From an uncultured Pseudomonadota bacterium (GTDB taxonomy: Bacteria; Pseudomonadota; Alphaproteobacteria; Rs-D84): 64,000 nt of DNA. How positions within the stretch are numbered: position 1 is the first letter of the stretch; every line of letters begins with the position of its first letter. Shown piece after piece: positions 1,168-33,962 of the stretch. Position numbers and translations under genes: made by a program. Below the pieces are notes generated by a model, which searched no databases, was not told where the DNA came from, and saw nothing but the letters and a program-made list of their open reading frames with translations. The stretch is taken from NCBI GenBank assembly GCA_949296475.1, contig CASFOK010000007.1, positions 9,448-73,447 of the forward strand. The letters run 5' to 3'.

Positions 1168-1947
1168 ATGACAAATCAGTTTCATAGAACGCTTAACAGA
1201 ATGGCTTTTTTCACGGCATTGTTGATTGCGGGCTTGTTCTTATTTTACGAACCGTTTTTACGCGTTGCATCGGCCAACGTCATATTAAACGGCATAATCA
1301 TAGGCACAATTGTTTTTGGCATAACATTGTGTTTTTTTGAAATATTTAAACTGTTACCAGAATATAGATGGGCGCGTGCATATTTCCAAGGACAAAAAAA
1401 TGCCCCCCTGCCCCCAAGACTTTTGCGTCCTGTTGCCCTGCTTTTAAGGTCACGTCCAACCAGAATAACTGTTTCCAGCCTGCAAGGAATGTTGGACATG
1501 ATTTTATTACGATTTGAAGATTCGCGCGAATCAATACGTTATATTACGAACACTTTGATATTTTTAGGGCTATTAGGAACTTTTTGGGGGTTAATTATAA
1601 CTGTTGGCGGTTTTTCCGAATTAATCGGCAACCTTAATTTTGAGAATGAAGGGGTACTGGTTGCCATGCAACAAGGTCTGTCAAAACCGTTATCGGGTAT
1701 GGCAACGGCATTTACAAGTTCTTTGATGGGATTGGCAGGCAGTTTAATAATAGGATTTTTAGGCTTGCAGGTACAACTGGCCCAGAATGCGATATTTCGT
1801 GAACTGGAAGACTACCTATCGGCGCACACCAGCCCCGTGTCCATAGACGCTGTTATCAGTGACACACTGCCAGAAATCAAATCGGTTGCCCAAGCGTTGA
1901 ATAAAAACGTTCAGCAATTACAAAACACGGTATCAGAAATAATATGA
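1168..1947 (+). CDS. MotA/TolQ/ExbB-family proton-channel protein
   Basis: Four predicted TM segments. Family-typical motifs LIFLGLLGTFWGLI and GMATAFTSSLMGLAGSLIIGF are present. It is followed 36 nt later by a MotB-like gene. Confidence 0.75.
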   Translation: MTNQFHRTLNRMAFFTALLIAGLFLFYEPFLRVASANVILNGIIIGTIVFGITLCFFEIFKLLPEYRWARAYFQGQKNAPLPPRLLRPVALLLRSRPTRITVSSLQGMLDMILLRFEDSRESIRYITNTLIFLGLLGTFWGLIITVGGFSELIGNLNFENEGVLVAMQQGLSKPLSGMATAFTSSLMGLAGSLIIGFLGLQVQLAQNAIFRELEDYLSAHTSPVSIDAVISDTLPEIKSVAQALNKNVQQLQNTVSEII

Positions 1948-1983
1948 CAAATATTAACCGTATAACGAGAGAGGGAAAATAAA

Positions 1984-3096
1984 ATGCTAAATATTCGTTT
2001 TCGTGAAAAGACAAATACTTGGCCCGCGTTCGTAGATTTATTTTCGAACCTTGTGATTATTCTTATATTTTTATTAATAGTCTTTGTATTTTTATGGATT
2101 ACTACAACCGTGTTTAACAAAGACACTGGGGCACAAACAGTCGCGGAATTAAAACGCGCCAACGCAGAACAAAGTGAAAAAATTATGCAAATGACCGCCG
2201 ATGAAGAAGAAGCGAAAAGGTTACTTATATTGGCGCGGGCAGAACTAGAAAACCTAGAAAAAAATAATGCGCAACTGTCAAACTCATTACAAGAGGTCAA
2301 TGTCAGCGTTGACGAATTAATTACAGAATACGAAAACAAAGTTGCAGAATTACAAAACCAGGGCATTGATTTACAAGCGCAAGTTGCGGCACTAACCCAA
2401 CAACTAAATCAAGCGACATTGGACAAGCAAAGAACCGCGGAACTGGAACAAGAAAGACGTGATTTGCAATCTCAGATGGAACAACAGCGCGCGTCACTGG
2501 CAGAACAATTAACAAAATTACAAGCCGCCCTTGATGCCGCCGAAGAAAAGGCGCACGAAAAAGACATTCAATATGTAGAAATGTCAACCCGTCTTAATAA
2601 AGCACTTGCAGACAAAGTTGCTGAATTAAACAGCGTTGCCCAATATCAATCTGAATTTTATAAAGCGATAAAGAACGCACTGGGCGGCGATTCTTATATA
2701 CAACCGGACGGTGACAGATTTATAGTATCCAGCGACATTTTGTTCAGCAGCGGTTCTTATACATTATCACCCGAAGGTAAAAATCAAATAAGGTTAATCG
2801 CCAATGTAATCAAAAACTTAGAAAATCAAATACCTACAAACATAGATTGGATAATTCGTGTTGACGGTCATACCGACAAACACAAGGTTGTTCCTGGGAC
2901 GAAGGATTATAAAGACAATATGGAATTATCGTTGTTACGTGCAAATGCCGTTGCGAACGCATTAGCAGAAAACGGCGTGTCTAAACGTCGCTTGGTTCCC
3001 AGTGGTTTTGGTGATTTACATCCCGTTGCATTGGGGACTGATGCGGACAGCCTGCAACAAAACAGACGTATAGAATTACAACTAACTAACAGATAA
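1984..3096 (+). CDS. MotB-like protein: N-terminal TM plug, about 200-aa coiled coil, OmpA-like peptidoglycan-binding domain
   Basis: The N-terminus WPAFVDLFSNLVIILIFLL carries the conserved Asp in the TM, as in MotB. A long Q/E/L/A-rich heptad region follows. The C-terminus reads VDGHTDKHKV...NMELSLLRANAVANALAENGV...NRRIEL, the OmpA C-like motif. Confidence 0.75.
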   Translation: MLNIRFREKTNTWPAFVDLFSNLVIILIFLLIVFVFLWITTTVFNKDTGAQTVAELKRANAEQSEKIMQMTADEEEAKRLLILARAELENLEKNNAQLSNSLQEVNVSVDELITEYENKVAELQNQGIDLQAQVAALTQQLNQATLDKQRTAELEQERRDLQSQMEQQRASLAEQLTKLQAALDAAEEKAHEKDIQYVEMSTRLNKALADKVAELNSVAQYQSEFYKAIKNALGGDSYIQPDGDRFIVSSDILFSSGSYTLSPEGKNQIRLIANVIKNLENQIPTNIDWIIRVDGHTDKHKVVPGTKDYKDNMELSLLRANAVANALAENGVSKRRLVPSGFGDLHPVALGTDADSLQQNRRIELQLTNR

Positions 3097-3176: not shown

Positions 3177-3557
3177 TTATAATTTTTCTACATAGTCAAC
3201 GTCAATTTCTGTTTTGAACAAGCCTGCATCAACTTCGCCATATAACTTTACATCATCAGAAGGTGTGACTGTCTGACCACGCCAATCATCGTCATCAATT
3301 TCAACAGTAATTGAACCGGTAGAATCCTTGAATAAATATTTTTCGTCACCCATGCGTTGAACGATGTTACCTTTGACAATGACAGGGACATCATCGCGCA
3401 TTTCTTTCACTTGATTTACATTGATGATTGTTTCTGTTCCGCCGACAAAACCGCCTTTTGCGTTTGGTTGTTGTGCATTAGTACCAGGCTGGAAACCGGC
3501 GGTTGCAGTCCCTGCAACCAAAGTACAAGCCAAGGCCAAGATATAACTTTTTTTCAT
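3177..3557 (-). CDS. YgiW/YdeI-family periplasmic OB-fold (BOF) protein
   Basis: Signal peptide MKKSYILALACTLVAGTATA. The body VIVKGNIVQRMGDEKYLFKDSTGSITVEIDDDDW...LYGEVD matches the BOF family. Start chosen at 3555-3557, after a GGGGTG Shine-Dalgarno. Confidence 0.75.
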   Translation of the reverse strand: MKKSYILALACTLVAGTATAGFQPGTNAQQPNAKGGFVGGTETIINVNQVKEMRDDVPVIVKGNIVQRMGDEKYLFKDSTGSITVEIDDDDWRGQTVTPSDDVKLYGEVDAGLFKTEIDVDYVEKL

Positions 3558-3624
3558 GAATTCACCCCTTTTGTTTAATTTTACAATGTTCATTATATCA
3601 CAAATTTCCATACAAATGTCTAGG

Positions 3625-3662: not shown

Positions 3663-6155
3663 TTACATAACGATATCTTCACATACAGGATCCGACACTT
3701 CTGTTGTACATTCTGTATTCCGGCTGTTATGGAACCAACTGCTACTACCTGTTGTCTTACAATTTTCTTTTGATATCGTTGTACATATATGGCAAGTTCT
3801 TGTATCACGACTAAATATCGCAGTTACTTCTTTAGTCATTCCACCACCGCTTAAACTTGAGCCCCCCAAATATCCGCTATTAGAAAACTTTATACCACCC
3901 GATTTGACAACTCCTGTTCCACCATTCGTTAAATCTTCAACAGACAATCCAGCACCGACATCATAACTGATAGAATATGGCGGAGTTAATGGTGTTGTTG
4001 CACCAGTACTTATACCCAAATCACTGCCACCATTTTCTGCAATCTTTTGACACATATACTGCGCCAAATCTACAGAAGCATTTTTGGTAGCATCCGCAAT
4101 CGCCGTATTTAATTTTTCGTTATAATTATCCTGGGCCTGACGCAACGCGGCAACCGCAATTTGCATTTTTACTTGATTCAATAGATTTGGAAAACGTCCC
4201 GTTGTTTTTGCACCGGATTTACCTGTTATTTGCGATAAATCACGACCGTTTACACAGAATTGAATTTCGGGGTCTTCTTCTATCATCGCAATTGTGCGAT
4301 TGATTGTTCCTGCGATATTATTCAATTCTTCTTCTATGGACGATATGATACCGTCTGCATTTGCGACAGTTGCGTTTTTCTCGCGGATTTTGGCAATGTA
4401 TTCTTGGACGCCGATTTCACCTGGTCCCAATTTTACATTTCCGTCGTCGCCAGAATCAACCGTTTTACCAGACGAATCACCCATTTTTATGCTGCCAAAA
4501 GAAATCATACCTGTTACGCGATATATATTGCCGTCTTTTTGAGAACGTAAAGAACCCGTTCCCAACGTATCATCGGCAGCAAACTTGTTACAATCGGTTG
4601 TACTGCCACAAACCTCGGTCATCTTTTGATCAACTAAATTCTGACACTGTTCAATTGCGGCATTATCAATATTCAAATACAACCCCATTAACATGCCATC
4701 CAAATCGTCCATAGAGAAATTTGGATTATTTGCCTTGCATACGACCAAAGAATCTAACGGACAAATGTCATGAATATAGTCATAGTCCATACCAATGCAA
4801 TTTTCAAAGTTAGTACCACAACGCGTATCCGCAGTAAAGCAGTCTTTTACTTCTTGGGTACAAGCATCTACACGCATTGCCGCCAACTTATCTTCAACAT
4901 ATCCCCAAATAAGCGGTTCCATTCTTTCACAAGGGTCTATTTCAACCTTACAAAAACTGCGCGCCATATCGGGACGCGATAAACAGGCGTCCATTGTTGC
5001 GACTCCCTTGCCCGCGATATCGTCTTTACACGCCTGTTGAATACAATTAGAAATGTTGGTCAAACAAGACTGACGGAACTTTGATTCTGCCTGGCTTTCG
5101 GCAAGTCTAATGGTTGGCGCAGCTTCGCGCAAGAAATTTGGCCAAACCATATCACGAACTGCAACGCAGTTATCTAACACATTTTCACAGATTACTCGTT
5201 TTGAATTTAAAACGTCCATCGTAGAAGCAGTTATGTCATATGTTTCAACGCTTTGAACCTTTGTTCCAGCAGTACTTACTGTTTCATTATTTTGCATATT
5301 TTCTGACGCAACAATAGAAACGCAGTTTTCCCAGTTTTCACCACAAGCATCATTTGTCAACATACACTTCTTAAATTCTACCATGCATTGACCCAAATCA
5401 TATTTATTTGATTCTTCAAAGCTGTCTTGCAATGCCTGTCTGACTGCGGATTCCGCGCTTGCCAATTCAGCCTCGGCTTCGGATTTCTTTTTAGTCAACG
5501 TATTTTTAAAACCTAAACAATCGGATGTTATTTGTCTGGAATACAACTGTTCCAAGAAAGGCAAATCCCCAGAACAAGATTCTGGTAACTGGGCGTTACA
5601 TAAATCTTTGGCGGCTTTGTATAATTCATTACCAGTTTTATCCGCAAGACTTGTAACCCCGCTTTCTTCGTCATCATCATAAGTATCATTTTCAAACAAA
5701 GCCAATAAACTTGCACGTTCTTGCGCTTTTTTTTCTTCCGCCGTCATTTCTGTATCAGACATTATGTTTCCATCTGCGTCGTACCTGCGTTCACCAGTAA
5801 AAATAATGTCTGCATTTGCCCCGGCTTTTACGCGTTCAACCTCTACCGTTTTGATACGATTCGCCTCGGTCAACATATCCTGAATTTCTGCAAAATCCTT
5901 TTCATATTGAATGCTGTCATCGCTGCAAGTACAACTGCCACCATTAGAATTATCTGTTATACAAAACTGATCCATACAACCAAAATAAGCATTATAACAT
6001 TCTTGGTCATATAACCCTGTGGTTTCTGTACGTGTACGGACGGTTGTTCCCTGCTGAATTGCAGATTGTTTCTTGGCAGTCGTTGCCGCATAAACTGCGC
6101 CAATAAACATACACATTACACATGATACAGGAACAATCGTTTTTCTTAGTTTCAT
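3663..6155 (-). CDS. Large secreted cysteine-rich coiled-coil protein, uncharacterised paralog family (P1)
   Basis: Signal peptide MKLRKTIVPVSCVMCMFIGAVYA. Head motif ECYNAYFGCMDQFCITDNSNGGSCTCS. I count about 36 Cys in the mature part. It is collinear with the protein at 37255-40332. Start trimmed to the ATG at 6153-6155. Confidence 0.85.
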   Translation of the reverse strand: MKLRKTIVPVSCVMCMFIGAVYAATTAKKQSAIQQGTTVRTRTETTGLYDQECYNAYFGCMDQFCITDNSNGGSCTCSDDSIQYEKDFAEIQDMLTEANRIKTVEVERVKAGANADIIFTGERRYDADGNIMSDTEMTAEEKKAQERASLLALFENDTYDDDEESGVTSLADKTGNELYKAAKDLCNAQLPESCSGDLPFLEQLYSRQITSDCLGFKNTLTKKKSEAEAELASAESAVRQALQDSFEESNKYDLGQCMVEFKKCMLTNDACGENWENCVSIVASENMQNNETVSTAGTKVQSVETYDITASTMDVLNSKRVICENVLDNCVAVRDMVWPNFLREAAPTIRLAESQAESKFRQSCLTNISNCIQQACKDDIAGKGVATMDACLSRPDMARSFCKVEIDPCERMEPLIWGYVEDKLAAMRVDACTQEVKDCFTADTRCGTNFENCIGMDYDYIHDICPLDSLVVCKANNPNFSMDDLDGMLMGLYLNIDNAAIEQCQNLVDQKMTEVCGSTTDCNKFAADDTLGTGSLRSQKDGNIYRVTGMISFGSIKMGDSSGKTVDSGDDGNVKLGPGEIGVQEYIAKIREKNATVANADGIISSIEEELNNIAGTINRTIAMIEEDPEIQFCVNGRDLSQITGKSGAKTTGRFPNLLNQVKMQIAVAALRQAQDNYNEKLNTAIADATKNASVDLAQYMCQKIAENGGSDLGISTGATTPLTPPYSISYDVGAGLSVEDLTNGGTGVVKSGGIKFSNSGYLGGSSLSGGGMTKEVTAIFSRDTRTCHICTTISKENCKTTGSSSWFHNSRNTECTTEVSDPVCEDIVM

Positions 6156-6171
6156 TTTTCCCCCACATACT

Positions 6172-6222
6172 TTTGTACATATGTTGTACAAACAAACATG
6201 TAATTCGCTGACGAATTACATG
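6172..6222 (-). terminator. Two adjacent hairpins at the P2/P1 junction (possible attenuator or terminator)
   Basis: Perfect 11-bp stem CATGTAATTCG/CGAATTACATG (6197-6222) spans the P2 stop and is followed on the minus strand by TTTGTTTGT. An 8-bp stem TTTGTACA/TGTACAAA follows at 6172-6192. Confidence 0.4.
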
Positions 6223-8381
6223 TTAACGTCTTCGCAAGATTCAATTTCTTGACAGAATTCTTCCTCGCCCGCGGCACTACGTCCTGCGAAGAAACCGCCA
6301 ACTGCACCGACGACACCACCGATTGCAGTACCCCAACCTGGCGTAACAATTGTACCGGCAGCCGCGCCAGCAGACAGACCGCCTGCCAACCCCTTTAATC
6401 CGGCAGTCCCCTTGCTTTCACCGCCTACCTCGCAAACCTGCTGCATGCGACATACATGGCAGTTTCGCAAATCCGGTTCAAAAGAAACGCTTCTTATGTA
6501 ACTGTAATTACCGCTTTTAGAACTCGGCGTTTCAACTTTATATGTATTATAGCAATTTTTTTCTGCTTCTTCTAAATCCTGCTGACGTGATAGTTCGGCA
6601 ATTTTTGTTTCCAGTTCACGCATAGCACGGTTTTCTGCATTTATCTGCGCAATCATTTTTGCGCTATTAAATACGGTACTTCCCAAACTTTTACGATCGG
6701 CTGGTTTTTGACTATCTTGACAAGCAGCCACTGTTATATCTTGTTCAAACTGTTTAAAGAATTCATTTACGGTGTTTTCTGTATTTGCGCGAACCGTTTC
6801 ACGCAACTCCGCCAAACCTTGTTCTGTATCTGGAACGGAAACCAAAGATACGATTTTTGTATCGGTCGGCAAGCAAGACATATCCGTACCGCAAACAGCA
6901 CCCAATTGTTCACCAAAATAATTCAAGCACCCCTGCAACATCTGATAATCCATCTGCAATAACGCCGCTTGCACAATGATATCAAACTGTGTTTCATTTT
7001 TACAAGACGGGAACATAGTCTGCGGACATAATTGCGCTATTTCATTTGCGCTTTTCCCAACACATTCCGGCGCTGTGAAGTTTTCACCACACCTGTCGCG
7101 TAAACATTGGTCAATATCATTTTGACAAAACTGAGTACGCAAATACCCCAACTTATCATTTACAACTGTCTTTATACCCGGGATCATGGCCTCGCATTCA
7201 TCAATCACAGGGCATATCCCAGCCGCAACATTAACATCTGTTAAGCAAGCTGAATTTGTATCCGTAGAACAACTATCTTCTAAGCAAACTTGTATTCTTG
7301 CCAAACATGTTCCACGTGCATTTTTATCTGCATACTTTGCAGCATCTGCCAATATACTTTTAGATTCTGCTTCCCAATCTTGTAACACATATTCGCGTAC
7401 CGCCATACATTGATCCAAAACATTTTCGCACGCATTTGCACGTCTTCCCAACAAGTCGGCGTCTAAGCAATTTTCAAAATTAACACCGCATCCGCCTTTA
7501 TCGGCAATACAAGCACGATACGCCAACAAACATTCACCACGATTATACTTATTAGTCGTATCCAACATTTCAAGACGCGCTTGACGAACTGCAGCCTCGG
7601 CCGTACGTTTATTAGACGTTGCGATAGATTTCTGGTCATTTAAATAAGACTCAAAAGCCTTACAATCTTGCACTATTTGACGCGCATACAACATTTCTTC
7701 CATTTCGGCACTACTGCCACAAGCATCTAACTGACTGGCACAGAAATCGGCCGCCATAGAATACAAACCGTCACCTATCAAATCATCTGCGCCAAGACTG
7801 GCCTCTGTTTCAGTACCGCTGTTAATCCAATCAGCAAAACTTATTCCTGACGCCTTTGAACTTTTTTGCGCCTGCGCACTTTCACCGAACACCAATTTTG
7901 CCTGCGCACCAAGTTGTTCACGCTCTACCCCTTCGGTATAAAGCAAGTCAGCCTCTTCTTGTAAATCTTGAATTTCTTGAATCAACGACTTTGACTGACG
8001 AATATTGTCCGAACAAGCGCACCTGCTTCCTTCTGATTCATCAAGCAAACAAAACTCATCCATACAAGCACGATATGCATCCCTACAACTTGTACTTGTT
8101 GCGGTGCCGTCACCGTTATCACTACCGTTCGTCGTGCCGTTGTTGGTTGTACCCCCGCTTGAACTGCCACCACCGCTTGTACCACCAGGATTAGTAGACA
8201 CCGTCGGATTAGTTGGTATTGAATTATTAGCGCTGGTTATGTTTGTTGCCATATTAGGCGTCCGAGCCCCAGCCTGCGACATACGCGTTACACCAACCCT
8301 TACACTGGAATCACTGCGATCTGCACCAAAAGCTAATCCTGGCACAGTCATAAGAAACGCTAAAAACAAACCTAATTTCAT
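6216..8381 (-). CDS. Large secreted cysteine-rich protein with C-terminal glycine zipper, uncharacterised paralog family (P2)
   Basis: Signal peptide MKLGLFLAFLMTVPGLAFGA. S/G/T/N-rich linker. Head motif SCRDAYRACMDEFCLLDESEGSRCACS. C-terminus GWGTAIGGVVGAVGGFFAG...CQEIESCEDVNM. Confidence 0.85.
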   Translation of the reverse strand: MKLGLFLAFLMTVPGLAFGADRSDSSVRVGVTRMSQAGARTPNMATNITSANNSIPTNPTVSTNPGGTSGGGSSSGGTTNNGTTNGSDNGDGTATSTSCRDAYRACMDEFCLLDESEGSRCACSDNIRQSKSLIQEIQDLQEEADLLYTEGVEREQLGAQAKLVFGESAQAQKSSKASGISFADWINSGTETEASLGADDLIGDGLYSMAADFCASQLDACGSSAEMEEMLYARQIVQDCKAFESYLNDQKSIATSNKRTAEAAVRQARLEMLDTTNKYNRGECLLAYRACIADKGGCGVNFENCLDADLLGRRANACENVLDQCMAVREYVLQDWEAESKSILADAAKYADKNARGTCLARIQVCLEDSCSTDTNSACLTDVNVAAGICPVIDECEAMIPGIKTVVNDKLGYLRTQFCQNDIDQCLRDRCGENFTAPECVGKSANEIAQLCPQTMFPSCKNETQFDIIVQAALLQMDYQMLQGCLNYFGEQLGAVCGTDMSCLPTDTKIVSLVSVPDTEQGLAELRETVRANTENTVNEFFKQFEQDITVAACQDSQKPADRKSLGSTVFNSAKMIAQINAENRAMRELETKIAELSRQQDLEEAEKNCYNTYKVETPSSKSGNYSYIRSVSFEPDLRNCHVCRMQQVCEVGGESKGTAGLKGLAGGLSAGAAAGTIVTPGWGTAIGGVVGAVGGFFAGRSAAGEEEFCQEIESCEDVNM

Positions 8382-8510
8382 TTTAATCCCACCCTACAAT
8401 TGATATAATTTTACCAAAATAAGTTCTCTGGTGCAAGCAGATAAAAACAACTTGATTTTTTATGTTTAAAACAGTACCATTCAACGCATAAAATTTGAAT
8501 AAGGTTACAT

Positions 8511-8762
8511 ATGGCAAAAGACGACGTAATTGTTTTTAGCGGTACCGTAGAAGATAAACTGCCGAACACCATGTTTCGCGTAAAATTGGAAAACGGTCAT
8601 GAAATTTTAGCAACTGTTTGCGGTAAAATGCGCAAGGCGCGCATCTGGGTTAACGTTGGCGAAAAAGTTCGCGTTGAAATGACCCCTTATGATTTAGACA
8701 AAGGACGTATAACTTTCGTTGAGCGCACCCGTCAAACAGGTGATCAAAATACATCTATGTAA
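8511..8762 (+). CDS. infA: Translation initiation factor IF-1
   Basis: [69 protein letters not shown] is an S1-like IF-1 fold with a short C-terminal extension. Confidence 0.93.
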
Positions 8763-8763
8763 A

Positions 8764-8790
8764 GCCAACAAAGTTGGTGACTTTTTTATT
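8764..8790 (+). terminator. Weak terminator after infA
   Basis: GCCAAC/GTTGGT stem followed by a T6 run at 8782-8787. Confidence 0.4.
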
Positions 8791-8852
8791 GTAATCGGCG
8801 TAAATACTTCTTTCATTAAAAATACATTTTTGATATCATTATTAAGATAGTA

Positions 8853-11306
8853 ATGAAAAAGAATTTACTTTTTATACTTATGTGTCTTTTATGCATTGAC
8901 AACGTCAATGCTGCTGTTCGTAATGAAACAGCAATAAGCCGTACCACCAGCGATAACGTAACAACGAATGCAATCGTCGCAAGAACAGCAACACCACAAA
9001 CGACAAGAACAAACAATTCACAAACGACTACGCGCACATCAGGTTCATCAACTGCACGTAATGCAGGGAACACCGTTAACCGCAGTGCAACTAATAGGAC
9101 AACTGTACAACAAAATGTTTCACGCAGTGCGACTAATCCGCGCAGCAACGCAACTACGTCTTCCGCTGCCAGAACCGCGACGAACGCATCGGTTGTACGC
9201 AGTGCTACGAACGCCAGAAAAACAGTCGCGAATATATCACAAGAATTTTCCAAGGCATCTATCGCACGCGCAACAACGCAGGCAACAAATACATTTGGTA
9301 CTGGATATAACATTTGTCGCGACGCTTACTTTACATGTATGGATCAGTTTTGTGCAAATGCAAATACCACATATCGCAGATGTGTATGTTCATCACGCTT
9401 AACAGATATACAAGATAAAGAACGCGCATTATCCCAAGCATCCACACAACTGCAAGATTTCAAAGATTTAAATATAGAGGTTATCCCAAAAACCGCTGCG
9501 GAAGTAAACGCAATGATATCCGCAAGCGAAGGTGAAAGTTCACTTTCTATGACCAAAAATACAACATCGGAAACATTGGCAGGCATCAGTGAAATATTAA
9601 GTTCAAACAAATCCAAATCTTTATCAACGCTTGGGACACTGGACATAGCAGGCGACATAAATCAAATTTGGGCAACAACTGATTTAGCATCAGGTCAGGC
9701 AATTTCTAGCCTAATGGGTGAATCGTTGTACAACGCAGTTCATGCGCAATGCTCGGAATTGGTAAAGACGAACTGCGGTGACAACACAACGCTACAAATG
9801 GTTGTATCGGCATATGGAATGTACATAGAAAACGATTGCACTACTTTGTTAAATACGTTGGATTCACAATTACAAAAAGCAAACAGCACCATACGTGAGA
9901 CAGAACGTGAAATGAATCTAGCAAGGCTAGAAAATTATAATGCGCACAACTCTACTGCTATAAACGATTGCATTGCACAGGTACGCAAAGACATAACAGC
10001 CGATACCGCATGCGGTACAGATTATGTCCACTGCTTGGATATCACAGGCAGATATCTTAACCATGACACCGGTGAACCGATTTATTCAAGGGATTTTTAT
10101 CAATTACAGAATCAAACTTCTTTGGACGGCGACGTATTGACGAACCCAACGAATCGCATGCTGGTAGCAGAATTAAACCGCAAGCGCGCGTTTGCAGAAA
10201 AAGGTCTGTCAACGTGCCAAGACATTGCTGACGAGGTATGGGACGAATTCATGCGCCAAGCAATTACAGAAATATACCAAGGGCAACAGGCAAAAATCAG
10301 AGACGTCAAAAATGATTGCCTTGATACTGTTAACTTATGCTACGACGAACAGAGTGAATCTTTGAAAGACTTTAGTAATATCAAAGAAGAATTATTATTG
10401 GGTTCCAGATTGGAATTATCAGAAGAACTATGCCAAGAAAAACTGTATGCATGCAGTAATTTATACGGTGATCCCAACGGTGATGGCCTTGATTTGTTGA
10501 TATCTGCGATGCACGACATAACAGACCAAAAGATTGCCAAAGAATGTCGGACACTATTGGAAGAATATGCCCAAGATTTGTGTACCGTGCCCAGCAACGA
10601 CAGCCTGCATTCTTATCCGTACGCCTGTCGCGTTTATGCACCTGGCGACCAAATTTACGCATCAAATTGGTATTGCAATCAATTACAATGGTCTACAAAC
10701 ACAGGCGGCACAACAGACGATTCAATTGGCCCCGCGCCCGCCAATGGTTATAACTGTCCGACATTCAAAAGGTACAAATCGTGTAATTTTGGATATTACC
10801 TTGCCACACTACAAACAGACGGAAATTGGATATACACATCAACGCCAATGTTTAATAACGCATGTATCAGATGTCCGTCTAACGCGCAATGCGCCGGTGG
10901 AACGACGGGCCCCGTATACGGCGATGAAAGCGGTGACGGTTCAGGTGCACCAGACTGCGGGACAGACTATGCGGGCAGTTTATATCAAAAGGTTGTAAAA
11001 TACGCAACCCAGGTATGCATACGTCCATCGGAACTAGAAAACATCATATCAGGGAAAACACAACTGCCCACAAATATATTAGAAGACGTAAATGTGGTAA
11101 TGGATTCAATTCGTGTATCCATGTCACAGTCTTTATCGGCAGAATGTGACAGGCTTGGTGGCACATGGGTAAACACACCATGGGTAGAGGGCTCAACCGG
11201 CGGTACAACGTTATTTAAAGCGTTCTATGATGAAACAGGCGCAAATACTAAGTGGGGATATTGTGCAGACCCCAGCAGCATTTCAACATTAAATTCTGGT
11301 AACTAG
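8853..11306 (+). CDS. Large secreted cysteine-rich protein, uncharacterised paralog family (P3)
   Basis: Signal peptide MKKNLLFILMCLLCIDNVNA. RSAT(N)-type repeat linker. Head motif ICRDAYFTCMDQFCANANTTYRRCVCS. Many paired Cys. CxxC-rich C-terminal module. Confidence 0.85.
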   Translation: MKKNLLFILMCLLCIDNVNAAVRNETAISRTTSDNVTTNAIVARTATPQTTRTNNSQTTTRTSGSSTARNAGNTVNRSATNRTTVQQNVSRSATNPRSNATTSSAARTATNASVVRSATNARKTVANISQEFSKASIARATTQATNTFGTGYNICRDAYFTCMDQFCANANTTYRRCVCSSRLTDIQDKERALSQASTQLQDFKDLNIEVIPKTAAEVNAMISASEGESSLSMTKNTTSETLAGISEILSSNKSKSLSTLGTLDIAGDINQIWATTDLASGQAISSLMGESLYNAVHAQCSELVKTNCGDNTTLQMVVSAYGMYIENDCTTLLNTLDSQLQKANSTIRETEREMNLARLENYNAHNSTAINDCIAQVRKDITADTACGTDYVHCLDITGRYLNHDTGEPIYSRDFYQLQNQTSLDGDVLTNPTNRMLVAELNRKRAFAEKGLSTCQDIADEVWDEFMRQAITEIYQGQQAKIRDVKNDCLDTVNLCYDEQSESLKDFSNIKEELLLGSRLELSEELCQEKLYACSNLYGDPNGDGLDLLISAMHDITDQKIAKECRTLLEEYAQDLCTVPSNDSLHSYPYACRVYAPGDQIYASNWYCNQLQWSTNTGGTTDDSIGPAPANGYNCPTFKRYKSCNFGYYLATLQTDGNWIYTSTPMFNNACIRCPSNAQCAGGTTGPVYGDESGDGSGAPDCGTDYAGSLYQKVVKYATQVCIRPSELENIISGKTQLPTNILEDVNVVMDSIRVSMSQSLSAECDRLGGTWVNTPWVEGSTGGTTLFKAFYDETGANTKWGYCADPSSISTLNSGN

Positions 11307-11388
11307 AAAAATTTTTATAAACCGTGATGAAAGGAATCTTGCGATAAAAAAAACTTTTTGATACAATACAAATTATAAAGAGTAAAGA

Positions 11389-12093
11389 ATGAGGAAAATT
11401 TTTACAGTTTCTTTTATAAGTTTACTTATTGCAAGCCCCGCCGTTTCCGCAACGCCGTGGTGGCAACAACCGACCGTATGTCGTCTTGACCCGACAAATT
11501 GTTATACCAGTATGGGCATCGGGTACGATAGTGAATTGTGGGATACTAACGGCGGTTGTTGGGGTATGAAATTAATCTGTCCCGAAGCATTGATAAGCAC
11601 ATCGGAAAGTCAACCCATACCTATGGGCAAATCAGACATCGCAAAAAGTAAAAATATAAAACAAGATTTTGATACGAATAAACTAAACGGCGATTGTTTC
11701 GGCGTTCGCAAGACTATTTCTGACGGCGCAATGGCGTCCGTTAACGGTCAATACGTAAAGGTTTGGTGTAACGGCGTTTTGAATAACCCAGATGAATTCT
11801 TACCAAACGGTGAAATAACATTCGGTGAACAACCCAGTTGTTCTGAATTGGCGGACTATGGTTATGTCGCCGTTGTAGATAATAATTGCTATGGGAAATA
11901 TTATGACCCTTCAGAATACCGTATTGAATGTGACAGCGATGATGTATTACCGTCTCGTTTGGTGATATTAAACGGCGCGGATTATTCTACTACATCGGGA
12001 AAATTCCCTGCCGACGTATCTGCTGCGAACAAAATATTTGACGCAATGGAAAACGTATCTGAAAATCAACGTTCAAAATACTATAAAAACTAA
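11389..12093 (+). CDS. Secreted Cys-containing hypothetical protein
   Basis: Signal peptide MRKIFTVSFISLLIASPAVSA. I count 10 Cys in the mature part. Same strand as P3 and 82 nt downstream of it. No recognisable domain. Confidence 0.7.
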   Translation: MRKIFTVSFISLLIASPAVSATPWWQQPTVCRLDPTNCYTSMGIGYDSELWDTNGGCWGMKLICPEALISTSESQPIPMGKSDIAKSKNIKQDFDTNKLNGDCFGVRKTISDGAMASVNGQYVKVWCNGVLNNPDEFLPNGEITFGEQPSCSELADYGYVAVVDNNCYGKYYDPSEYRIECDSDDVLPSRLVILNGADYSTTSGKFPADVSAANKIFDAMENVSENQRSKYYKN

Positions 12094-12175: not shown

Positions 12176-15100
12176 TTAGAAATCATATCTGAATTTCAAC
12201 ATACCTGTTTGCGAGGTATAATCTTCGTGCAAATCCAAGTCATAGTTTACAGATATTTCTAAACCTTTGTATTCTGCGGTTAAACCTATGCCGAACTCGC
12301 CCCCCAAGCGTGACAGACGATTGCTGTTGACCATATAAGAAACAGCACCCGGCATCACAACTGTTGCAACCGCTTCGTCAGACAAGAAATCATACGTTGC
12401 AGCTGCACGTAATTCCGGACGGAATTTTAAAGTGTATTCCGTATCAATTCCGAAACCGTACTTTATGCCGGCAACGCCTGTTACATAGTCGGTATCACCA
12501 ACCTTTATATCTGCCAAGCCGTTATTATACTCATCTTGGGAGATATGCAAGTATCTGACACCTGCCTCTGGCGTAAATCCGATTGGGAGATCATATCCGC
12601 CCATAAACTGACCGCCAAAAGAGGTTACGTCATATTCTGAATCAATACCGATACCAAAAGCGCTTGTTTTTTCAGTATAATCCGCCATTGTGTAATTCAA
12701 CGCAGCGTTTACATACCACGCAGCAGGCTTGTACTGCGCATAAGCAAATATACTGTTGCTTTCAATATCTGTATCGCGTGCATTATCGGCATGAACATCT
12801 GTTGTGTTATAAGCATATCCAACACCGATTGTATAAGCACGATTAATCAATGTATCTGCCCCGACAGCAACACCGCGGGTATAACCATGGAACTGCCCAT
12901 TTAGTTTAGACTTATTGAATAACCCTTGGGCCCATACACCATAATCTGCTGTTACTGCATCACCACCGCTGCGCCCCGTCGCGCCACCAGACATACGTCC
13001 AGACGCCAAAGACAATACTTGGTTCTGAACTGATGTTGCAACAGAATGAGCAACAGGTTTATCATCTGCTTTTAATTTTGCAGATTCTGCTTCTACGTAT
13101 TCGGTATTACCTTCTGCCAAAGCCTGTTGCGCATTCAGTGCGGCAATGCCCATATCATAACTATCACTGTTTGCCAATCCGGCCAATACACTTGCGGAAC
13201 CCACAGACAGATTTGTTGCTGCGACAATTTCTTCAACGGCTTTTGTATTAACCACGATTTCATTATTTTGGTTGACAGATACATCATATAAAGCATCGTT
13301 TGCGTTTATGTTCAAACCGTCAACATCCGCCAAGGTACCATTTGCAAAGATATCGTATACACCCACGGCACCTATGTTTAACGTCAACGACTTGTCCCCA
13401 TTTATTTCAACGTTTTCACCTACAATCTTTCCATAAGATTGCGAGTTTATGATAGACACAGCCAAATTACCGTTTAAATTAATATTACTTTGTTCAACTG
13501 TTGCCGTACCTATATCCAAGGTTGCACCGCTATCAAGATTTAAAGTCCCGGTTCCTGTTATGCCACCGCCAATAGAAGTGGAACCGTCAGAAATTGTCAA
13601 TGTACCAAGATTATAAATATCGTTACTTACATCACCCGTCATATTACCCGAGAACAGGTTTGTACCCTTGAAATTTATGACACCAGATTTATCGTTATAA
13701 ATTGCACCGCCTTGAATACTTACGTCATTTTTTCTGACTGTTGCGGAATTTCCGATAAATTGCGTATTAGAAATTTCCGAAATGGTGCCCTCGTTCCACA
13801 AAGCCCCGCCGTTTGTACCCATATTGTTTTGAAACGTAGAGCCTGTTATTGACGCTATTGTGCCCTGATTTTTTATTGCACCACCTTGTGACGCGATATT
13901 CCCGTTAAATACAGAATCAGATATATTGTTTATCTGTCCTGATGCATCTGTATTATTAATCGCACCGCCCTGTTGCGAGATATTATTAAAGAAGTTCATC
14001 CCTTGTAAAGAATCTATTGTACCATTGTTATAAATGGCACCCCCAGCATACCCCGCCCTATTTCCATAGAACGTTAAACCGTCTGCAAGATTCAAGTTTC
14101 CAGAATTAAATATCGCACCCCCGGCAGAACCAGATTCATGTGTGTCACTTTCTGCTGCGACATTGTTATTAGTAAAGTGCCCGTTTATTGTTGCCGTGCC
14201 AGAATTATATAACGCGCCACCATTCGCTGTTCCACCAACAGAAGAAGCAAAATTATTAATAAAGTTCCCTTCGGCAGAAAAAGTACCCTCGTTATAAACA
14301 GCACCGCCAAACGCATCTGTTGCATTTGTCGTCACACCATTACCCCCAAACATGCCCTTTACATTAACTTCGGCACCCGTGACACCAGACTTAACATTCT
14401 TAATGGAAATAGCACCGCCTGTTGACGTTTTTTTATAATCAGGATTTTCAAACATGTTGTTTGAAGCCTTTGCAATTACCCTGTTATTTATAAAATTACC
14501 GTTTATTTGGTCAATGTTTGCATCATATCCTGTCTGCCCTTCTCTGTCGGCACCGCCTTTAAGATATATCGCGCCACCATTTGCATAAGCGTCACCAGTC
14601 GCACTGTTACCTATAAAATTACCATTTATTGTTCCAATACTTGCAGGTCCGCCATTTCCATTATTATATTGACCTTCTATATGAATGGCGCCACCACCAG
14701 CAGATACTTGTGATTTATTGTCTGTGTATTTTGAAGCGCCATCTGCACCTACATAAGTAGAAGAAATACTATTATTCGTAAAATCACCATTTATTTCATT
14801 TATGTTGGAACCCGCATACAACGCAAACACAGCACCATTTGCAGTAGCCTTGGACGCTGTTTCAGAAGTATTTGTGACAGAATTATTACTGAATGTACCG
14901 TTTATAGTACCTAAACTGCCTTTACTATAAAGAACAGACCCCTGTCCGACAACTTCACTGCCTGTTCCATTTTTAGATACGATAATTTTATTACCGTCAA
15001 CTTTTCCCGCATCAATTACAACATCTGCATAATCATCACCTGATATATTCAAAATTCCACCGGTAACAGATGTATTTCCATCGGGTTTAACAACAACGCC

Positions 15101-15217
15101 GCTCCAACTTTCAACGTTTTCAGGATTGGTAGCCGCGGCAAAAGAGCCCGTTGAAATCATGCCACACACCGCAAACACAGGCAGTACAGAACATGCTTTA
15201 AGTAGTTTATTAGACAT
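12176..15217 (-). CDS. Autotransporter with polymorphic-membrane-protein (Pmp) type repeats
   Basis: Signal peptide. More than 10 alternating GGA[ILV] (GGAIY, GGAIS, GGAVY, GGALY, GGAIF...) and FxxN (FSNN, FTNN, FINN, FIGN...) motifs. The C-terminal beta-barrel domain ends ...LKFRYDF. Confidence 0.85.
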   Translation of the reverse strand: MSNKLLKACSVLPVFAVCGMISTGSFAAATNPENVESWSGVVVKPDGNTSVTGGILNISGDDYADVVIDAGKVDGNKIIVSKNGTGSEVVGQGSVLYSKGSLGTINGTFSNNSVTNTSETASKATANGAVFALYAGSNINEINGDFTNNSISSTYVGADGASKYTDNKSQVSAGGGAIHIEGQYNNGNGGPASIGTINGNFIGNSATGDAYANGGAIYLKGGADREGQTGYDANIDQINGNFINNRVIAKASNNMFENPDYKKTSTGGAISIKNVKSGVTGAEVNVKGMFGGNGVTTNATDAFGGAVYNEGTFSAEGNFINNFASSVGGTANGGALYNSGTATINGHFTNNNVAAESDTHESGSAGGAIFNSGNLNLADGLTFYGNRAGYAGGAIYNNGTIDSLQGMNFFNNISQQGGAINNTDASGQINNISDSVFNGNIASQGGAIKNQGTIASITGSTFQNNMGTNGGALWNEGTISEISNTQFIGNSATVRKNDVSIQGGAIYNDKSGVINFKGTNLFSGNMTGDVSNDIYNLGTLTISDGSTSIGGGITGTGTLNLDSGATLDIGTATVEQSNINLNGNLAVSIINSQSYGKIVGENVEINGDKSLTLNIGAVGVYDIFANGTLADVDGLNINANDALYDVSVNQNNEIVVNTKAVEEIVAATNLSVGSASVLAGLANSDSYDMGIAALNAQQALAEGNTEYVEAESAKLKADDKPVAHSVATSVQNQVLSLASGRMSGGATGRSGGDAVTADYGVWAQGLFNKSKLNGQFHGYTRGVAVGADTLINRAYTIGVGYAYNTTDVHADNARDTDIESNSIFAYAQYKPAAWYVNAALNYTMADYTEKTSAFGIGIDSEYDVTSFGGQFMGGYDLPIGFTPEAGVRYLHISQDEYNNGLADIKVGDTDYVTGVAGIKYGFGIDTEYTLKFRPELRAAATYDFLSDEAVATVVMPGAVSYMVNSNRLSRLGGEFGIGLTAEYKGLEISVNYDLDLHEDYTSQTGMLKFRYDF

Positions 15218-24297: not shown

Positions 24298-27200
24298 TTA
24301 TATGCCTAACCTATGTGTCATTTTCAGCATAAATATGGATTCGTTACCGAAATAATCTGTATTATTGGGATTTATGCGATATATAAAACCTATTGCCCCG
24401 TCGGTCCAAGGTCCGAAGTTATGACGATACGCGGCAGACAAACGGACTTCGCGATGTTCCGGCGATAAATCAACATCTTTTACATAAGCATCGTTTACAA
24501 CCAAGTCATATTTTCCGTCCGCTGTTTCAACGATACCGTAATCGGCATACGCATATTGCAAAGTACCGCGATTGACCGCCAACGGTTGTGAAACCGAGAA
24601 ACTAAAATTATCAGTATCCATCCCGAAAGCAAAAGCATTAGAATATATATCAGACAAACCTAATATAAAATCGCCGCTTGCATCAGACGTAGTATACGCA
24701 AATGTTGAACGCAATTTAAACTTTATGTTTTCCCAAGGCTCATAACGCAGTTCTGTGTCAACATAAGTTGTATTCCCCTGCCCTATGTTTAACAAGCCCC
24801 CCGTCAAAGCACCCAATAAAGTATCTGTTTCATGCGCGGTACCAACCGCAGATGTGAACCCAAACTTTTCACTGTTCCAAGAAATGTCAGACTGTGCACC
24901 TTGCATCAACCCCAACCTTGCGGGCATATATTGCGACGATACAGTCGGATCTGTATCTAACATTTCTTCATCTGTGATATCACCGGAAAAAGCGCGTGCC
25001 CCAAATGTCCATTTGCCCAAAGTATACGCAACATCAGAAACCAGCGCATTTGACATCATATTTAATACAGGATTAGACAAGCCATCAAATCTTGATGCAC
25101 CGTCTGTAAAATGCCTTTGAAATCCGGCTGATAAATTCCAATTATCTGCTGCATAATCCAATTGCATATTATCTAAACCGTTTAAATTATCTGCGTACGG
25201 CTTTTCTGACATAGACATAGAGAAACCAAAGTCACCGAATTGCACTTTATTCGCTGTTGCGTTCCGCGTTTTCAATTCGCCTAATACATCCCCCATATAA
25301 AGTCCGCGTTTATCTTGTACCCCCAGCGCAAACTCATTTTTCCAAATACGAGGCAAAGACAATTCACCGTCAAAACTTTCTAACCTGTCAAAGAAAGGTG
25401 CACTTATTGTAGCGACTCTGGGATTAAATGCCGACGACGACCTAAATATAGTATTACTTGCCGCACGCCAATACGCGTTACCAGACGCGGACACGATATC
25501 TGTACCATTATAATAATATACAGCATGCCCAGGCGTCGTTGCCCTTTCAAGATTTATCAAACCGTAACCAAAAACCTCTTTGAACACATCCAGATAGTTT
25601 TCACCGCCATTTTGCCAACGATATTCGTATTCATTCGGCATCTGATACATACTTTGTAAATAAGCTATCAAACTGGATTCCGAAAAAGTATTTCCGCTGG
25701 AATCCGTCCCCAGATAAGCACCGTCAGCAGTCAAAGCCATCAAAGCAAACAATTGTTGGTTTGTCATATCTGGGAATGCAGACTTCAAAGCCCCAGATGC
25801 GCCCGCGGCACTGGCAACCGCCAATTCATCGGTTACGCCGACAGACGCAAAACACCACGGGTCAATACCATTGGCACCGTTACCAGAAATACCACATACG
25901 CGTGCCTTAAAGTATGTATCATCGTCTGTTGTATCTGGGGTATTGTTTGTATTTTGCCACTGTGAAACTATGTACTTATGTTGTGGCGTATACCCACTGA
26001 CACTTTCGGTACCGTTGGTTCCCGTACCGCTTTGGATGACCGCAACAACAGACATAAATAAATGTTCCAGATTATCAAATACAAGCGGTGCCGAGTTTTC
26101 AAAAGAAGCCGTTAAAGTCTTGCCCGACCAAGTACTATCTGTTTCAAACGCCCCCGTTGAAAATATAACCAAAGGAGTATACGAAGACCCTAAATTATTA
26201 AAAAATGTCGTCGCATTTGCCCCTGGTAACGCATCTGTTTGACTGTCACCGTCCGTTGTGTTTTGGTTATAATAGTCGTTTACAAACGACGCGAATCCTG
26301 TTTGCATGGCATTATTCGCACTGCCAAAGGCCAAAACGTCGTCAATTGTTGCGGATGTTACTTGATGTAACGGTGATATTACAGACGCATTTGCCAGTAT
26401 AAAAGGAGTAGAACGACCACCCGCTAAATCCCCCGACGTAATACGACTTGCCGCATCTAATAAAGCCTTATAATTATAATAATCCAAAGTTTCTGCTTCT
26501 TGCTTTACCAGCGTTAAATTATTATTAGACATTTGATAAGCCTGATTTACGCTGCCCCCAGATGTACTTGGCAGATACAGCAAACCGTCCGCCCCAATAT
26601 ATCCCGTGTACGTAGAATCAGAATCAGACGCCACAATTGTATTTCCCGTTCTTGTCACTGTTAAAGTCTGGTCAAATAAATTCAATGTATCACCAGTTGC
26701 AAGGCTTGCACCGGCCATAGTATAAGTCCCGGTTGCAGATTGCCCTGTAACAGTAACCAATCCCTGCCCCCCGCCAGTTCTGTATATCAACATCTGACCG
26801 TTTGGCATAAACCCCATAAAGTCCGCAGAACTATAACCCGCGTCGTTACCGCCAACGACCTTGGCCAACAAATTATCATCTGATGTTGCGGACGTATTAT
26901 TTACAGCCGTACCAAAACCAGATAAATCAAAATTATTTACCAGCGTTCCATCTTCTGACGTTGTAGCGTTTGTAACTTGGTTATCTTCAGAAGACCCCAA
27001 TGTTATCACATTATTATAATATTTACTTGATAACATACTAACTTCTGCGGGTGCGGGCGTAGCACCATTCATATCCGTCCACGCAATCAACTTATCATCC
27101 AAAGAATTAACCCCCGCAGTAGATTCCCCGGCAGGTTTAGACGCAGCGTTTATGCCGTTTGTAGTAATTAACGCAACTGTTACCGGTCGTCCACCACCAA

Positions 27201-28853: not shown

Positions 28854-29720
28854 ATGGTAAAAAAAATCGCGTTTTTAATATCTGGTATATTATTATACCC
28901 TGGTTTATCGCTTGCTGCGACTTGTTCGCAAGCAAATTTGACGCGTTGCCTTGATTCTGTATGTGCGATAAACGTATCGTCTAACCCTGCGGCTCGTTGC
29001 CAATATTGTGGTACGTCCAGTGCCGGCAGTCCAGACACAAAAAACGCCATGCGCAGTTTATCGCTTGGGCAATCTGCGAAATATACACTTAGTGAAAAAG
29101 AATTGGACAAGGCGCCCACCGACCCGGGCAAGCGTTATATATGGGCAACGGAACAATGTATAAAAAAGATAGAGGGTTGCACCGCCGAAGACGTATCCGA
29201 CACATATGATAAATTAATAGAACAATCTTGCAAGGCCGCCGGTATAAACGCCCAAATGGCCGCATTGCGTGCCGACGCAAACAAGACGGTCAGTAAGACG
29301 ACCTGTTCTACGGACATAACGTCATGTATGGTTGACAGCAAACGTTGCGGTCCTGATTATCGTTCTTGTGCAAACGATTCGGAATTTAATAATTTCTTTG
29401 CCTATTGTTCTGTAGAGGCCAAGGGTTGCGACGAATACATATCTGACATTCGTTCTGATTTAATATCGCTTCGCGATAACACCATCAAAAACGCGGACTT
29501 GGCCATAGACAATATTGTGTCTGCATATCAAAATGCACGTACTAAAAAAGTATCAGACGCGCAAGATTCTTGTACAAATAACGCTGCACGCGACAGTTGC
29601 GTCAAGACGGTATGCGAACGCAACATGCCAAACAAATGTGGCGAAGGTTACGAATCAGAAAAAAGCGCGGCGACACAATTCTGTAAATTTTATGAATTGG
29701 CCTGCGACGTATTAAAATAG
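28854..29720 (+). CDS. Secreted cysteine-rich protein, short member of the family (P6)
   Basis: Signal MVKKIAFLISGILLYPGLSLA. Degenerate head motif CSQANLTRCLDSVCAINVSSNPAARCQYC. Paired Cys throughout. Confidence 0.8.
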   Translation: MVKKIAFLISGILLYPGLSLAATCSQANLTRCLDSVCAINVSSNPAARCQYCGTSSAGSPDTKNAMRSLSLGQSAKYTLSEKELDKAPTDPGKRYIWATEQCIKKIEGCTAEDVSDTYDKLIEQSCKAAGINAQMAALRADANKTVSKTTCSTDITSCMVDSKRCGPDYRSCANDSEFNNFFAYCSVEAKGCDEYISDIRSDLISLRDNTIKNADLAIDNIVSAYQNARTKKVSDAQDSCTNNAARDSCVKTVCERNMPNKCGEGYESEKSAATQFCKFYELACDVLK

Positions 29721-29727
29721 AAAAGAT

Positions 29728-33515: not shown

Positions 33516-33911
33516 CGAACACATATGCTTAGAAAGATTTTCCAATCAGGCTGTCAAATATATTAAAAATATATCAATATTATAACATATAACCGCAATC
33601 GTTTAGAATAAAAGATTTTTCCGAACGTTTATATGATAATACTTTTTATTTAACATCAACGACAACCAAACGCGGTTCTATATAAAACTAATTACATATA
33701 CGCCCAATTATCGCAATTAGAATATACAAGTTACGTCCGCCACGGACTTCACAACCATTTCATCATGTGATATAAATCAAAACATATAAATTCGCATATT
33801 CAACAACACCGAAATATACCCAGAGCCTTTATATTTACCCTGCCCTTTGATTCATATCATTTATGCACATTTAATGTCTTTGGATATTAAATCATTTTAG
33901 ATTTATACATA

Positions 33912-33940: not shown

Positions 33941-33962
33941 CTTGTATAAAAAGCACTCAGAT

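Follow-up and report, generated by a model that had tools for sequence, protein, structure and literature searches.

The stretch of DNA analysed here (the window; 64,000 nucleotides of contig CASFOK010000007.1) encodes four large, cysteine-rich proteins with export signals, P1, P2, P3 and P5, and a smaller secreted protein, S4 (Table 1). The genes for P1, P2, P3 and S4 form a group referred to below as cluster 1, and P5 is encoded farther along the window. The four large proteins are true paralogs, with similarities far beyond chance: BLASTP pairs P1 with P5 at 1e-140 (37% identity over 717 amino acids, aa), with P2 at 3e-61 and with P3 at 1e-19. An original prediction, made by a model from the letters of the window, had outlined these open reading frames (ORFs), ascribed a single architecture to them and described P1 as collinear with P5. 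Both descriptions hold; the ORFs are as it drew them, one head motif is common to all four and both pairs of peptides quoted for P1 and P5 are present. The longest ORF for P1 begins at a TTG (position 6191), and the ATG at 6155 yields the signal peptide common to its orthologs.

The proteins had been called giant. At 721–1025 aa and 75–108 kDa in mature form they are better described as large. They are acidic, with an isoelectric point (pI) of about 4.5, and cysteine makes up 3.3–5% of their residues. The large fraction of the window that had been attributed to the family and its neighbours can now be given in numbers: 10.2 kb (16%) is occupied by the four paralogs alone, and with S4 and four related Cys-rich genes the share rises to ~17.7 kb (28%).

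Table 1. Positions of the family genes, their parts and neighbouring features, numbered within the window unless a locus is named
Feature	Position	Strand	Description
P1	3663-6155	-	830 aa; signal peptide, short linker, head motif, predicted helical Cys-rich core (aa 51-530), helical/beta middle, C-terminal beta domain (aa 730-830)
P2	6216-8381	-	721-aa paralog, 36 Cys; directly upstream of P1 on the same strand
P3	8853-11306	+	817 aa, most divergent paralog; 134-aa Arg-rich linker; own Cys-rich C-terminal region; 29 Cys after signal peptide
S4	11389-12093	+	234-aa secreted protein; signal peptide, 9 conserved Cys; immediately downstream of P3
P5	37255-40332	-	1025 aa; collinear with P1 to ~aa 707, then Ser/Gly-rich C-terminal tail; 34 Cys
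Head motif, C-x3-Y-x2-C-M-D-x-F-C-x9-C-x-C-S	5922-5999 (P1); 8010-8087 (P2); 9315-9392 (P3); 39889-39966 (P5)	-; -; +; -	six-frame search with a regular expression
P3 linker	8913-9314	+	6 copies of the short motif x-[AS]-R-[ST]-A-T (with variants, x-[AS/VN]-R-[ST/N]-A-[TG])
P5 linker	39967-40272	-	4 copies of the short motif x-[AS]-R-[ST]-A-T
CX6C-CG module, C-x6-C-x6-CG-x2-[FYW]-x2-C	5322-5387, 4797-4862 (P1); 7467-7532, 7062-7127 (P2); 39295-39360, 38734-38799 (P5)	- (all)	regular expression
P2 glycine-zipper-like segment	6270-6425	-	aa 653-704, hydrophobic; hydropathy and GxxxG scan; proposed membrane anchor
P2/P1 hairpin	6195-6224	-	13-bp stem and T-rich tail
infA	8511-8762	+	translation initiation factor IF-1; between P2 and P3, upstream of P3; Pfam eIF-1a in locus L081; context gene, not a family member
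BOF	3177-3611	-	YgiW-like periplasmic OB-fold protein, downstream of P1; Pfam BOF 2.9e-29
C288	28854-29720	+	smaller secreted Cys-rich protein; one CX6C-CG module
C536	29728-31338	+	smaller secreted Cys-rich protein; two CX6C-CG modules, Gly-zipper segment
C726	31335-33515	+	Cys-rich; two CarboxypepD_reg domains, Gly-rich hydrophobic segment, C-terminal OmpA peptidoglycan-binding domain (Pfam)
C711	33963-36098	-	24 Cys; two Gly-zipper segments
DsbA-family protein	locus L001, 17043-17870; locus L081, 21629-22462		outside the window
MotA/ExbB-like and OmpA-domain pair	1168-3096	+	259-aa and 370-aa proteins
Autotransporter-like protein	12176-15217	-	Chlamydia PMP repeat
Ankyrin protein	24298-27978	-	1226 aa; signal peptide, N-terminal ankyrin repeats (Ank_4 2.4e-5)
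347-aa membrane protein	36190-37233	+	between C711 and P5

Export by the Sec route, which had been proposed earlier, is predicted for the whole family. All four paralogs begin with a classical N-terminal signal peptide that has an AxA-type cleavage site, and a hydropathy scan finds this peptide to be the sole strongly hydrophobic segment in P1, P3, P5 and S4. The signal peptide of P2 ends in AFG, followed by AD, and has no lipobox Cys. A lipoprotein reading of the sequence VSC in P1 was rejected, its orthologs having ordinary AxA cleavage sites. None of the family signal peptides contains a twin-arginine motif.

When the window is translated in all six frames, the head motif has exactly four matches, one each in P1, P2, P3 and P5. 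All five of its cysteines are invariant across 90 sequences. The motif had been described correctly apart from its spacer, which is nine residues long in all four rather than seven or eight. Ahead of it lies an element of the form ARAA ... QKVI..GTKV that recurs family-wide. The low-complexity linker said to precede the head motif fits the individual proteins less evenly. That of P1 is only ~29 aa long, and the linkers of P3 and P5, which are basic (pI 12), exceed mere low-complexity sequence, in that the short motif listed in Table 1 is found six and four times, respectively, as against 0.6–0.7 times in shuffles of the same linkers.

P1 and P2 also have in common a Cys-bridged hairpin at the C-terminus, F-x-x-x-x-R-x-C-H-[IV]-C ... 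C-E-D-[IV]-x-M. The terminal C-E-D-[IV]-x-M is kept in the P1 and P2 orthologs and many P5-type members end in P-x(5-6)-[IVT]-x-M; the conserved terminal Met of these three types might be a sorting or assembly signal. At the junction of the two genes, the hairpin listed in Table 1 overlaps with the stop codon of P2, a short distance upstream of where P1 starts, and it could act there as a terminator or attenuator between P2 and P1. A scan for promoters and terminators gave counts that did not differ from those of shuffles and carries no information.

The family is new, as had been supposed: no sequence or structural relative was found in Pfam, NCBIfam, PADLOC, PHROGs, the PDB or BFVD. For P1, P3, P5 and S4, Pfam yields nothing at E<=0.1 and PADLOC and PHROGs nothing at all, and the sole NCBIfam match, to P1, has E=0.049 and 13 bits against a cutoff of 172 bits. 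P2 matches LeoBC (1.1e-5), a phage tape-measure family (2.8e-4) and phrog_18476 (0.0039) in PADLOC and PHROGs, in each case over or next to its Gly-rich C-terminal segment. Searching PDB sequences by hmmsearch with profiles A2, A3 and A5 gave either no matches or E>=0.24. Among the 48 longest members of the family, scanned with Pfam for fusions, no domain was detected except for one sub-threshold DUF7631 match, and an autotransporter or YadA-anchor translocator domain has no Pfam match in the family. In the literature on Enterousia, Rs-D84 and CX6C, we found no description of the P1/P2/P3/P5 family. The general kinds to which it can be compared, Cys-rich exported envelope proteins and disulfide-stapled helical proteins, are already known.

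Relatives outside the window are numerous. A profile of the four paralog cores, run as a full HMMER search against 1.84 billion cluster representatives, recovers 871 clusters at E<=1e-3 and 437 at E<=1e-30. All named homologs are annotated as 'hypothetical protein' and come from metagenome-assembled genomes (MAGs) of Alphaproteobacteria or 'Rickettsiales'. The P5 type is the most diversified subfamily, accounting for 94 of the 150 best cluster representatives. Some homolog accessions and locus tags resemble a termite-gut MAG series, from which they may derive.

An AlphaFold2 model of P1, built on an alignment of 90 sequences, is confident, with a mean predicted local distance difference test (pLDDT) score of 82.6 and 408 residues at 90 or above. 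It comprises an all-helical domain (aa 51–530), short beta hairpins (537–576), a second helical region (584–707) and a beta domain (730–830), the last of which is polar, contains cysteine and is without hydrophobic windows. The coiled-coil character given to the family was overstated, as the model shows long helices that would pack into a helical domain. The model of P3 is weaker (pLDDT 65.9). For P1, the best Foldseek matches have E=0.68 in the PDB and E=0.06 in BFVD, the latter with a TM-score of about 0.1 (<0.15), and for P3 there is no significant match in the PDB (best E=1.9). Foldseek matches to CapZ, gasdermin and TNFR-like structures (E >0.9) were rejected.

The window is part of the genome of Candidatus Enterousia (order Rs-D84), an alphaproteobacterium of the gut whose genome measures <1 Mb. 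The closest homologs of the family are unnamed gut-metagenome proteins, one of which, at 74% identity, is labelled Candidatus Enterousia intestinigallinarum. Enterousia genomes are smaller than 1 Mb and lack the respiratory chain and most biosynthesis, and they retain rod-shape and peptidoglycan genes (PMC12306168), in keeping with the streamlined genome that had been surmised from the window. For comparisons with close relatives, one genome per GTDB species was scanned for loci encoding a relative and the best 80 of 246 such loci were used, all of which belong to Enterousia or to unclassified alphaproteobacterial MAGs. The order S4-P3-infA-P2-P1-BOF is kept in all 80, with S4 detected in 60 and adjoining P3 in 60. 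The position of infA is conserved in every locus covering it, and a BOF/YgiW-type gene adjoins P1 in most. It follows that every paralog forms an ortholog group of its own, long established and present as a single copy.

P1 orthologs (n=76) have identities of 56–96%, and the median identity to the window protein across the loci is 68% for P1, 71% for P2, 55% for P3 and 54% for S4. The corresponding medians for neighbouring genes are 74% (MotA-like), 69% (BOF) and 49% (the adjacent autotransporter). Against the closest relative, the ratio of nonsynonymous to synonymous substitution rates (dN/dS) is 0.059 for P1, 0.071 for P2 and 0.088 for P3, compared with 0.226 for the neighbouring autotransporter. 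These rates mark P1–P3 as real genes under strong purifying selection, unlike fast-evolving surface antigens.

Such a mode of evolution is difficult to reconcile with secreted toxins, bacteriocin-like proteins or effectors directed against competitors or the host, a role for which we see scarcely any chance. It is suggested by two weak, sub-threshold matches over the Gly-rich segment of P2, one to Bacteriocin_IIc (E=0.007) and the PADLOC one to LeoBC, and by the presence of gasdermin and an actin-capping protein among the best Foldseek matches. All of these are compositional, reflecting the glycine zipper, or non-significant, however, and the genes are single-copy, syntenic core genes, as opposed to variable accessory loci, that are not in plasmid or phage collections and have neither a double-glycine leader nor an adjacent immunity gene. 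Assignment of P2 to the class II bacteriocins was rejected: the match reaches 16.7 bits against a cutoff of 27.1 and covers only aa 653–696 of a 721-aa protein with a Sec signal. A mobile-element origin was likewise rejected, P1 having no match by tblastn in plasmid and phage collections.

The conservation extends to individual cysteines. When 90 diverse members are aligned, cysteine is invariant in 22 columns, and most of the other Cys columns are conserved at >=90%. Mature P1 contains exactly 36 cysteines, the number at which the earlier approximate count had arrived, and exactly 36 are also found in 72 of 74 P1 orthologs and 73 of 75 P2 orthologs. S4, which had been listed as a secreted Cys protein accompanying the others, is real, with a signal peptide and 9 cysteines in 59 of 59 orthologs. 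The P3 orthologs mostly have 29, 31, 33 or 35 cysteines, the extras coming in twos, and the count is odd in 60 of 71.

The cysteines had been said to recur mostly in pairs. Stated more precisely, the spacing is i,i+7: it separates adjacent Cys ten times in P1 compared with 1.3 expected (about 8-fold), and P2 and P5 are similarly enriched. Within the 90-member alignment, cysteines are lost strictly in twos and in different sets of sequences, as seen for C364/C409 (5 of 5), C376/C391 (7 of 7), C439/C465 (5 of 5) and C791/C825 (67 of 68), and the pair C264/C323 is absent together from P3. In the AlphaFold model, co-lost cysteines fall on different predicted helices in what would be antiparallel register (264+323 = 257+330 = 587; 364+409 = 371+402 = 773). 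A larger unit is visible as well. The CX6C-CG module has nine matches in the window, two each in P1, P2, P5 and C536 and one in C288, all of them secreted Cys-rich ORFs, and the core contains a duplication of this 22–27-residue module, as hhalign aligns the two core halves with a probability of 94.7% (E=5.8e-8, 27 columns).

Taken as a pattern, these data suggest that the cysteines behave as disulfides and not as metal sites, and the arrangement in the model suggests 'twin CX6C' staples concatenated many times. Since the Cys counts are even and fixed among P1 and P2 orthologs, their disulfides are suggested to be mainly intramolecular. The odd counts of P3 (29) and S4 (9) could leave room for one intermolecular bond, either between P3 and S4 or in a P3 homodimer. 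In one clade without S4, a 5-Cys module of P3 is lost and the counts are mostly even (24–26; one ortholog has 25), and another clade without S4 keeps an odd count of 29 or 31. The earlier description of the family as disulfide-rich is supported, at the level of sequence, by the pairwise losses, the fixed even counts and a candidate oxidase gene nearby in relatives. This gene, which falls just beyond the window edge, encodes a transmembrane-anchored DsbA-family protein with a CPYC site and lies <=10 kb from P1 in 26 of the 80 loci, a 95%-identical relative included.

Two other uses of so many cysteines can be weighed against the same observations. Arrays binding a metal or cluster (Zn, Cu or Fe-S) in an exported protein might be read from the many invariant, closely spaced cysteines, such as the C-x-C, C-x4-C and C-x6-C of the head motif. 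We give this little credence: losses involve two cysteines at a time and not three or four, and orthologs have even numbers of cysteines. Conserved histidines that could act as partners are lacking, the signal peptides are without the twin-arginine motif by which cofactor-containing proteins are exported, and no metalloprotein family is matched in Pfam, NCBIfam or by the PDB profiles. It is slightly easier to imagine, though still very improbable, that the proteins are a periplasmic thiol/disulfide redox buffer or oxidant sink that protects an anaerobe near oxygenated mucosa. The Cys density of 3.3–5%, the strict pairing, the nearby DsbA-like gene and a lifestyle that is anaerobic and without a respiratory chain would all suit such a function. 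Against this, a buffer has no need of four conserved paralogs of 75–108 kDa with conserved non-Cys surfaces, head motif, linkers and C-terminal domains; moreover, the cysteines appear structural in the model, where they sit on packed helices, and no CXXC redox motif is conserved.

Attachment of the family to a membrane is suggested by P2. Its aa 653–704 form a GxxxG-rich hydrophobic hairpin in the glycine-zipper style known from the outer-membrane lipoproteins SlyB and the Rickettsia 17-kDa antigen (SlyB/PCP; Gly-zipper_Omp, Rick_17kDa_Anti), and because of this resemblance we propose that P2 may be anchored in a membrane. In the C-terminal Cys hairpin common to P1 and P2, this segment (~45 residues) takes the place of the loop in P2, and it is conserved in orthologs down to 47% identity. 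Unlike the glycine-zipper lipoproteins, P2 has a match that is below threshold and no lipobox, and its segment is inserted in a Cys-bridged loop of a 721-aa protein.

C288, C536, C726 and C711 constitute a second secreted Cys-rich cluster (28854–36098) that shares the CX6C-CG module, glycine zippers or both with the P family. BLASTP similarity of C288 and C536 to P5 and P2 is weak (3e-4 and 5e-4). This second cluster lies directly beside cluster 1 in four of the compared loci (L025, L029, L030 and L047), and P5, the Cys-module genes, the ankyrin protein and the autotransporter are repeatedly re-assorted directly beside cluster 1 across genomes. A location of the family in the cell envelope, on the periplasmic side or in association with the outer membrane, is favoured because of the P2 glycine zipper, the Gly-rich segments of C536, C711 and C726, the OmpA domain of C726, the re-assorting neighbours and the BOF gene.

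Several of the neighbours have features of their own. The ankyrin protein has a C-terminal region that is beta-rich by eye and adjoins S4 in at least eight other genomes; it may be a surface-displayed interaction domain of eukaryote type. The autotransporter-like protein is 45% identical in a genome where P1 is 82% identical. The MotA/ExbB-like protein is followed by one that combines a transmembrane segment and ~180 aa of coiled-coil-like sequence with an OmpA domain. This pair lies near cluster 1 in many genomes, and flagella are reported absent in the lineage. A Zorya system was rejected as such for the pair, since PADLOC ZorA/ZorB match only its MotA/MotB-like parts. The 347-aa membrane protein has a C-Y-C pair in its first transmembrane segment and an acidic disordered middle, matches no family and adjoins C711 in locus L043 as well.

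The main rival to a structural role is that the proteins are surface-exposed adhesins or attach the metabolically dependent bacterium to a host or partner cell, leaving by Sec and then by a further route to the surface, where disulfides would resist proteases and bile. The lineage lends itself to this idea: Enterousia are proposed to depend on other cells, as obligate symbionts or parasites, and have many hypothetical membrane proteins for cell–cell interaction (PMC12306168). The size, acidity, extended shape and flexible linkers of the proteins fit as well, and a PMP-repeat autotransporter and a secreted ankyrin protein re-assort with one another beside them across genomes. We nevertheless consider an adhesin doubtful. 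The family evolves as slowly as its housekeeping neighbours and far more slowly than the adjacent autotransporter, its copy number and Cys counts are fixed and no route of export across the outer membrane was found. Nor did we find a translocator, lipobox, beta-solenoid, Ig or lectin domain, or any Pfam fusion in the 48 longest members. Because of the slow, housekeeping-like evolution and the fixed single-copy orthologs in 80 genomes, the evidence tilts to a structural envelope role over an exposed adhesin.

We therefore favour, with a probability of roughly 0.45, a Sec-exported, disulfide-stapled helical envelope assembly made of P1, P2, P3 and P5, with S4 as a small partner. All five proteins would be exported by Sec and probably oxidised in the periplasm by the membrane-anchored DsbA-like oxidoreductase. 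They would fold into rigid, protease-resistant, mostly alpha-helical bodies, each with up to 18 intramolecular disulfides, many of them in twin CX6C staples that bond two cysteines seven residues apart on one helix to two on the antiparallel neighbour. The four ancient, non-redundant paralogs would then come together as a stable, heteromeric structure of the envelope, located in the periplasm or lining the outer membrane from within. The role of membrane tether would fall to P2, through the glycine-zipper hairpin in its C-terminal loop, the glycine zippers of C536, C711 and C726 and the OmpA domain of C726 would link the assembly to membrane and peptidoglycan, and the basic, motif-bearing N-terminal linkers would be flexible tethers. 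Of the original reading, the uncharacterised, exported and disulfide-rich nature of the family is well supported; the scaffold or adhesin layer itself is hypothetical.

A number of observations weigh against this assembly. P1, P3 and P5 themselves have no outer-membrane or peptidoglycan-binding domain, and the P2 match to Gly-zipper_Omp in Pfam is sub-threshold, scoring 15.0 bits where 25 are required (E=0.025). Since peptidoglycan genes are present in the lineage, a protein exoskeleton is not obviously needed. The events of Cys co-loss are few and partly clade-linked. Finally, it is hard to explain how DsbA would be re-oxidised to supply this many disulfides in an anaerobe that reportedly has no respiratory chain (PMC12306168), and neither DsbB nor VKOR was found beside the DsbA-like gene in the DNA covered.

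The closest functional analogy to a disulfide-stapled envelope assembly is provided by chlamydial OmcB and OmcA, which are thought to stiffen the envelope via disulfides. Together with MOMP they resemble the present family in being exported, Cys-rich envelope proteins of a host-dependent bacterium with a reduced genome and with PMP-type autotransporters nearby. Unlike OmcB and OmcA, the family has no lipobox, is predicted to be mainly alpha-helical and lacks sequence similarity to them, with no Pfam or NCBIfam match. In the chlamydial complex the arrangement also differs, as the disulfides here appear to be mainly intramolecular and Enterousia keeps peptidoglycan genes (SLT was seen).

Two further comparisons concern the stapled helices. 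Helicobacter Hcp is exported by Sec and consists of pairs of alpha-helices, each bridged by a disulfide. The family can be likened to Hcp and to Sel1-like-repeat proteins such as Legionella EnhC and LpnE for its predicted Sec export and for putative disulfide bridges between helices, to which the co-lost cysteines on different predicted helices would correspond. It has no match to Sel1 (PF08238) or TPR in Pfam at E<0.1 and no Foldseek match in the PDB at E<0.6; it is also without the regular 36-residue repeat, showing a single duplicated 27-residue module instead, and is much larger, with non-repeat head and C-terminal domains. The mitochondrial twin CX9C and twin CX3C (CHCH) proteins follow the same design that we infer for the family, with two cysteines at a fixed spacing bonded to an antiparallel helix. 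They differ in that the spacing here is CX6C and many staples would be concatenated in a bacterial periplasmic protein of 800 aa, as opposed to a single hairpin of ~10 kDa. There is no homology between the two and no CHCH match in Pfam, and oxidation would be DsbA-like and not by Mia40.

A bolder form of the envelope assembly, which we think unlikely, is a previously unrecognised proteinaceous layer of the envelope in Enterousia and its relatives, composed of four twin-CX6C paralogs with ~18 disulfides each and partners linked through glycine zippers and OmpA. Such a layer would be a disulfide-stapled skeleton of the periplasm or outer membrane with a fold absent from the PDB, and its oxidation would take place in a strict anaerobe that has no respiratory chain. 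If true, that layer implies an unrecognised means of driving periplasmic disulfide formation. Even apart from a layer, the need to form ~18 disulfides in each protein would be a biochemical puzzle for an anaerobe that is said to have no respiratory chain, and concatenated twin-CX6C helix staples would be a compact structural principle that may interest protein design.

Enterousia (order Rs-D84), which is uncultured, occurs widely in human, livestock, bird and termite guts and devotes ~1% of a ~0.9 Mb genome to four strictly conserved, slowly evolving exported proteins without known relatives. The family proteins are targets for metaproteomics and possible antigens or markers for visualising and enriching Enterousia. 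Given its conservation, its slow evolution and its share of the genome, the family is likely to be central to the construction of the cell or to its attachment to whatever it depends on.

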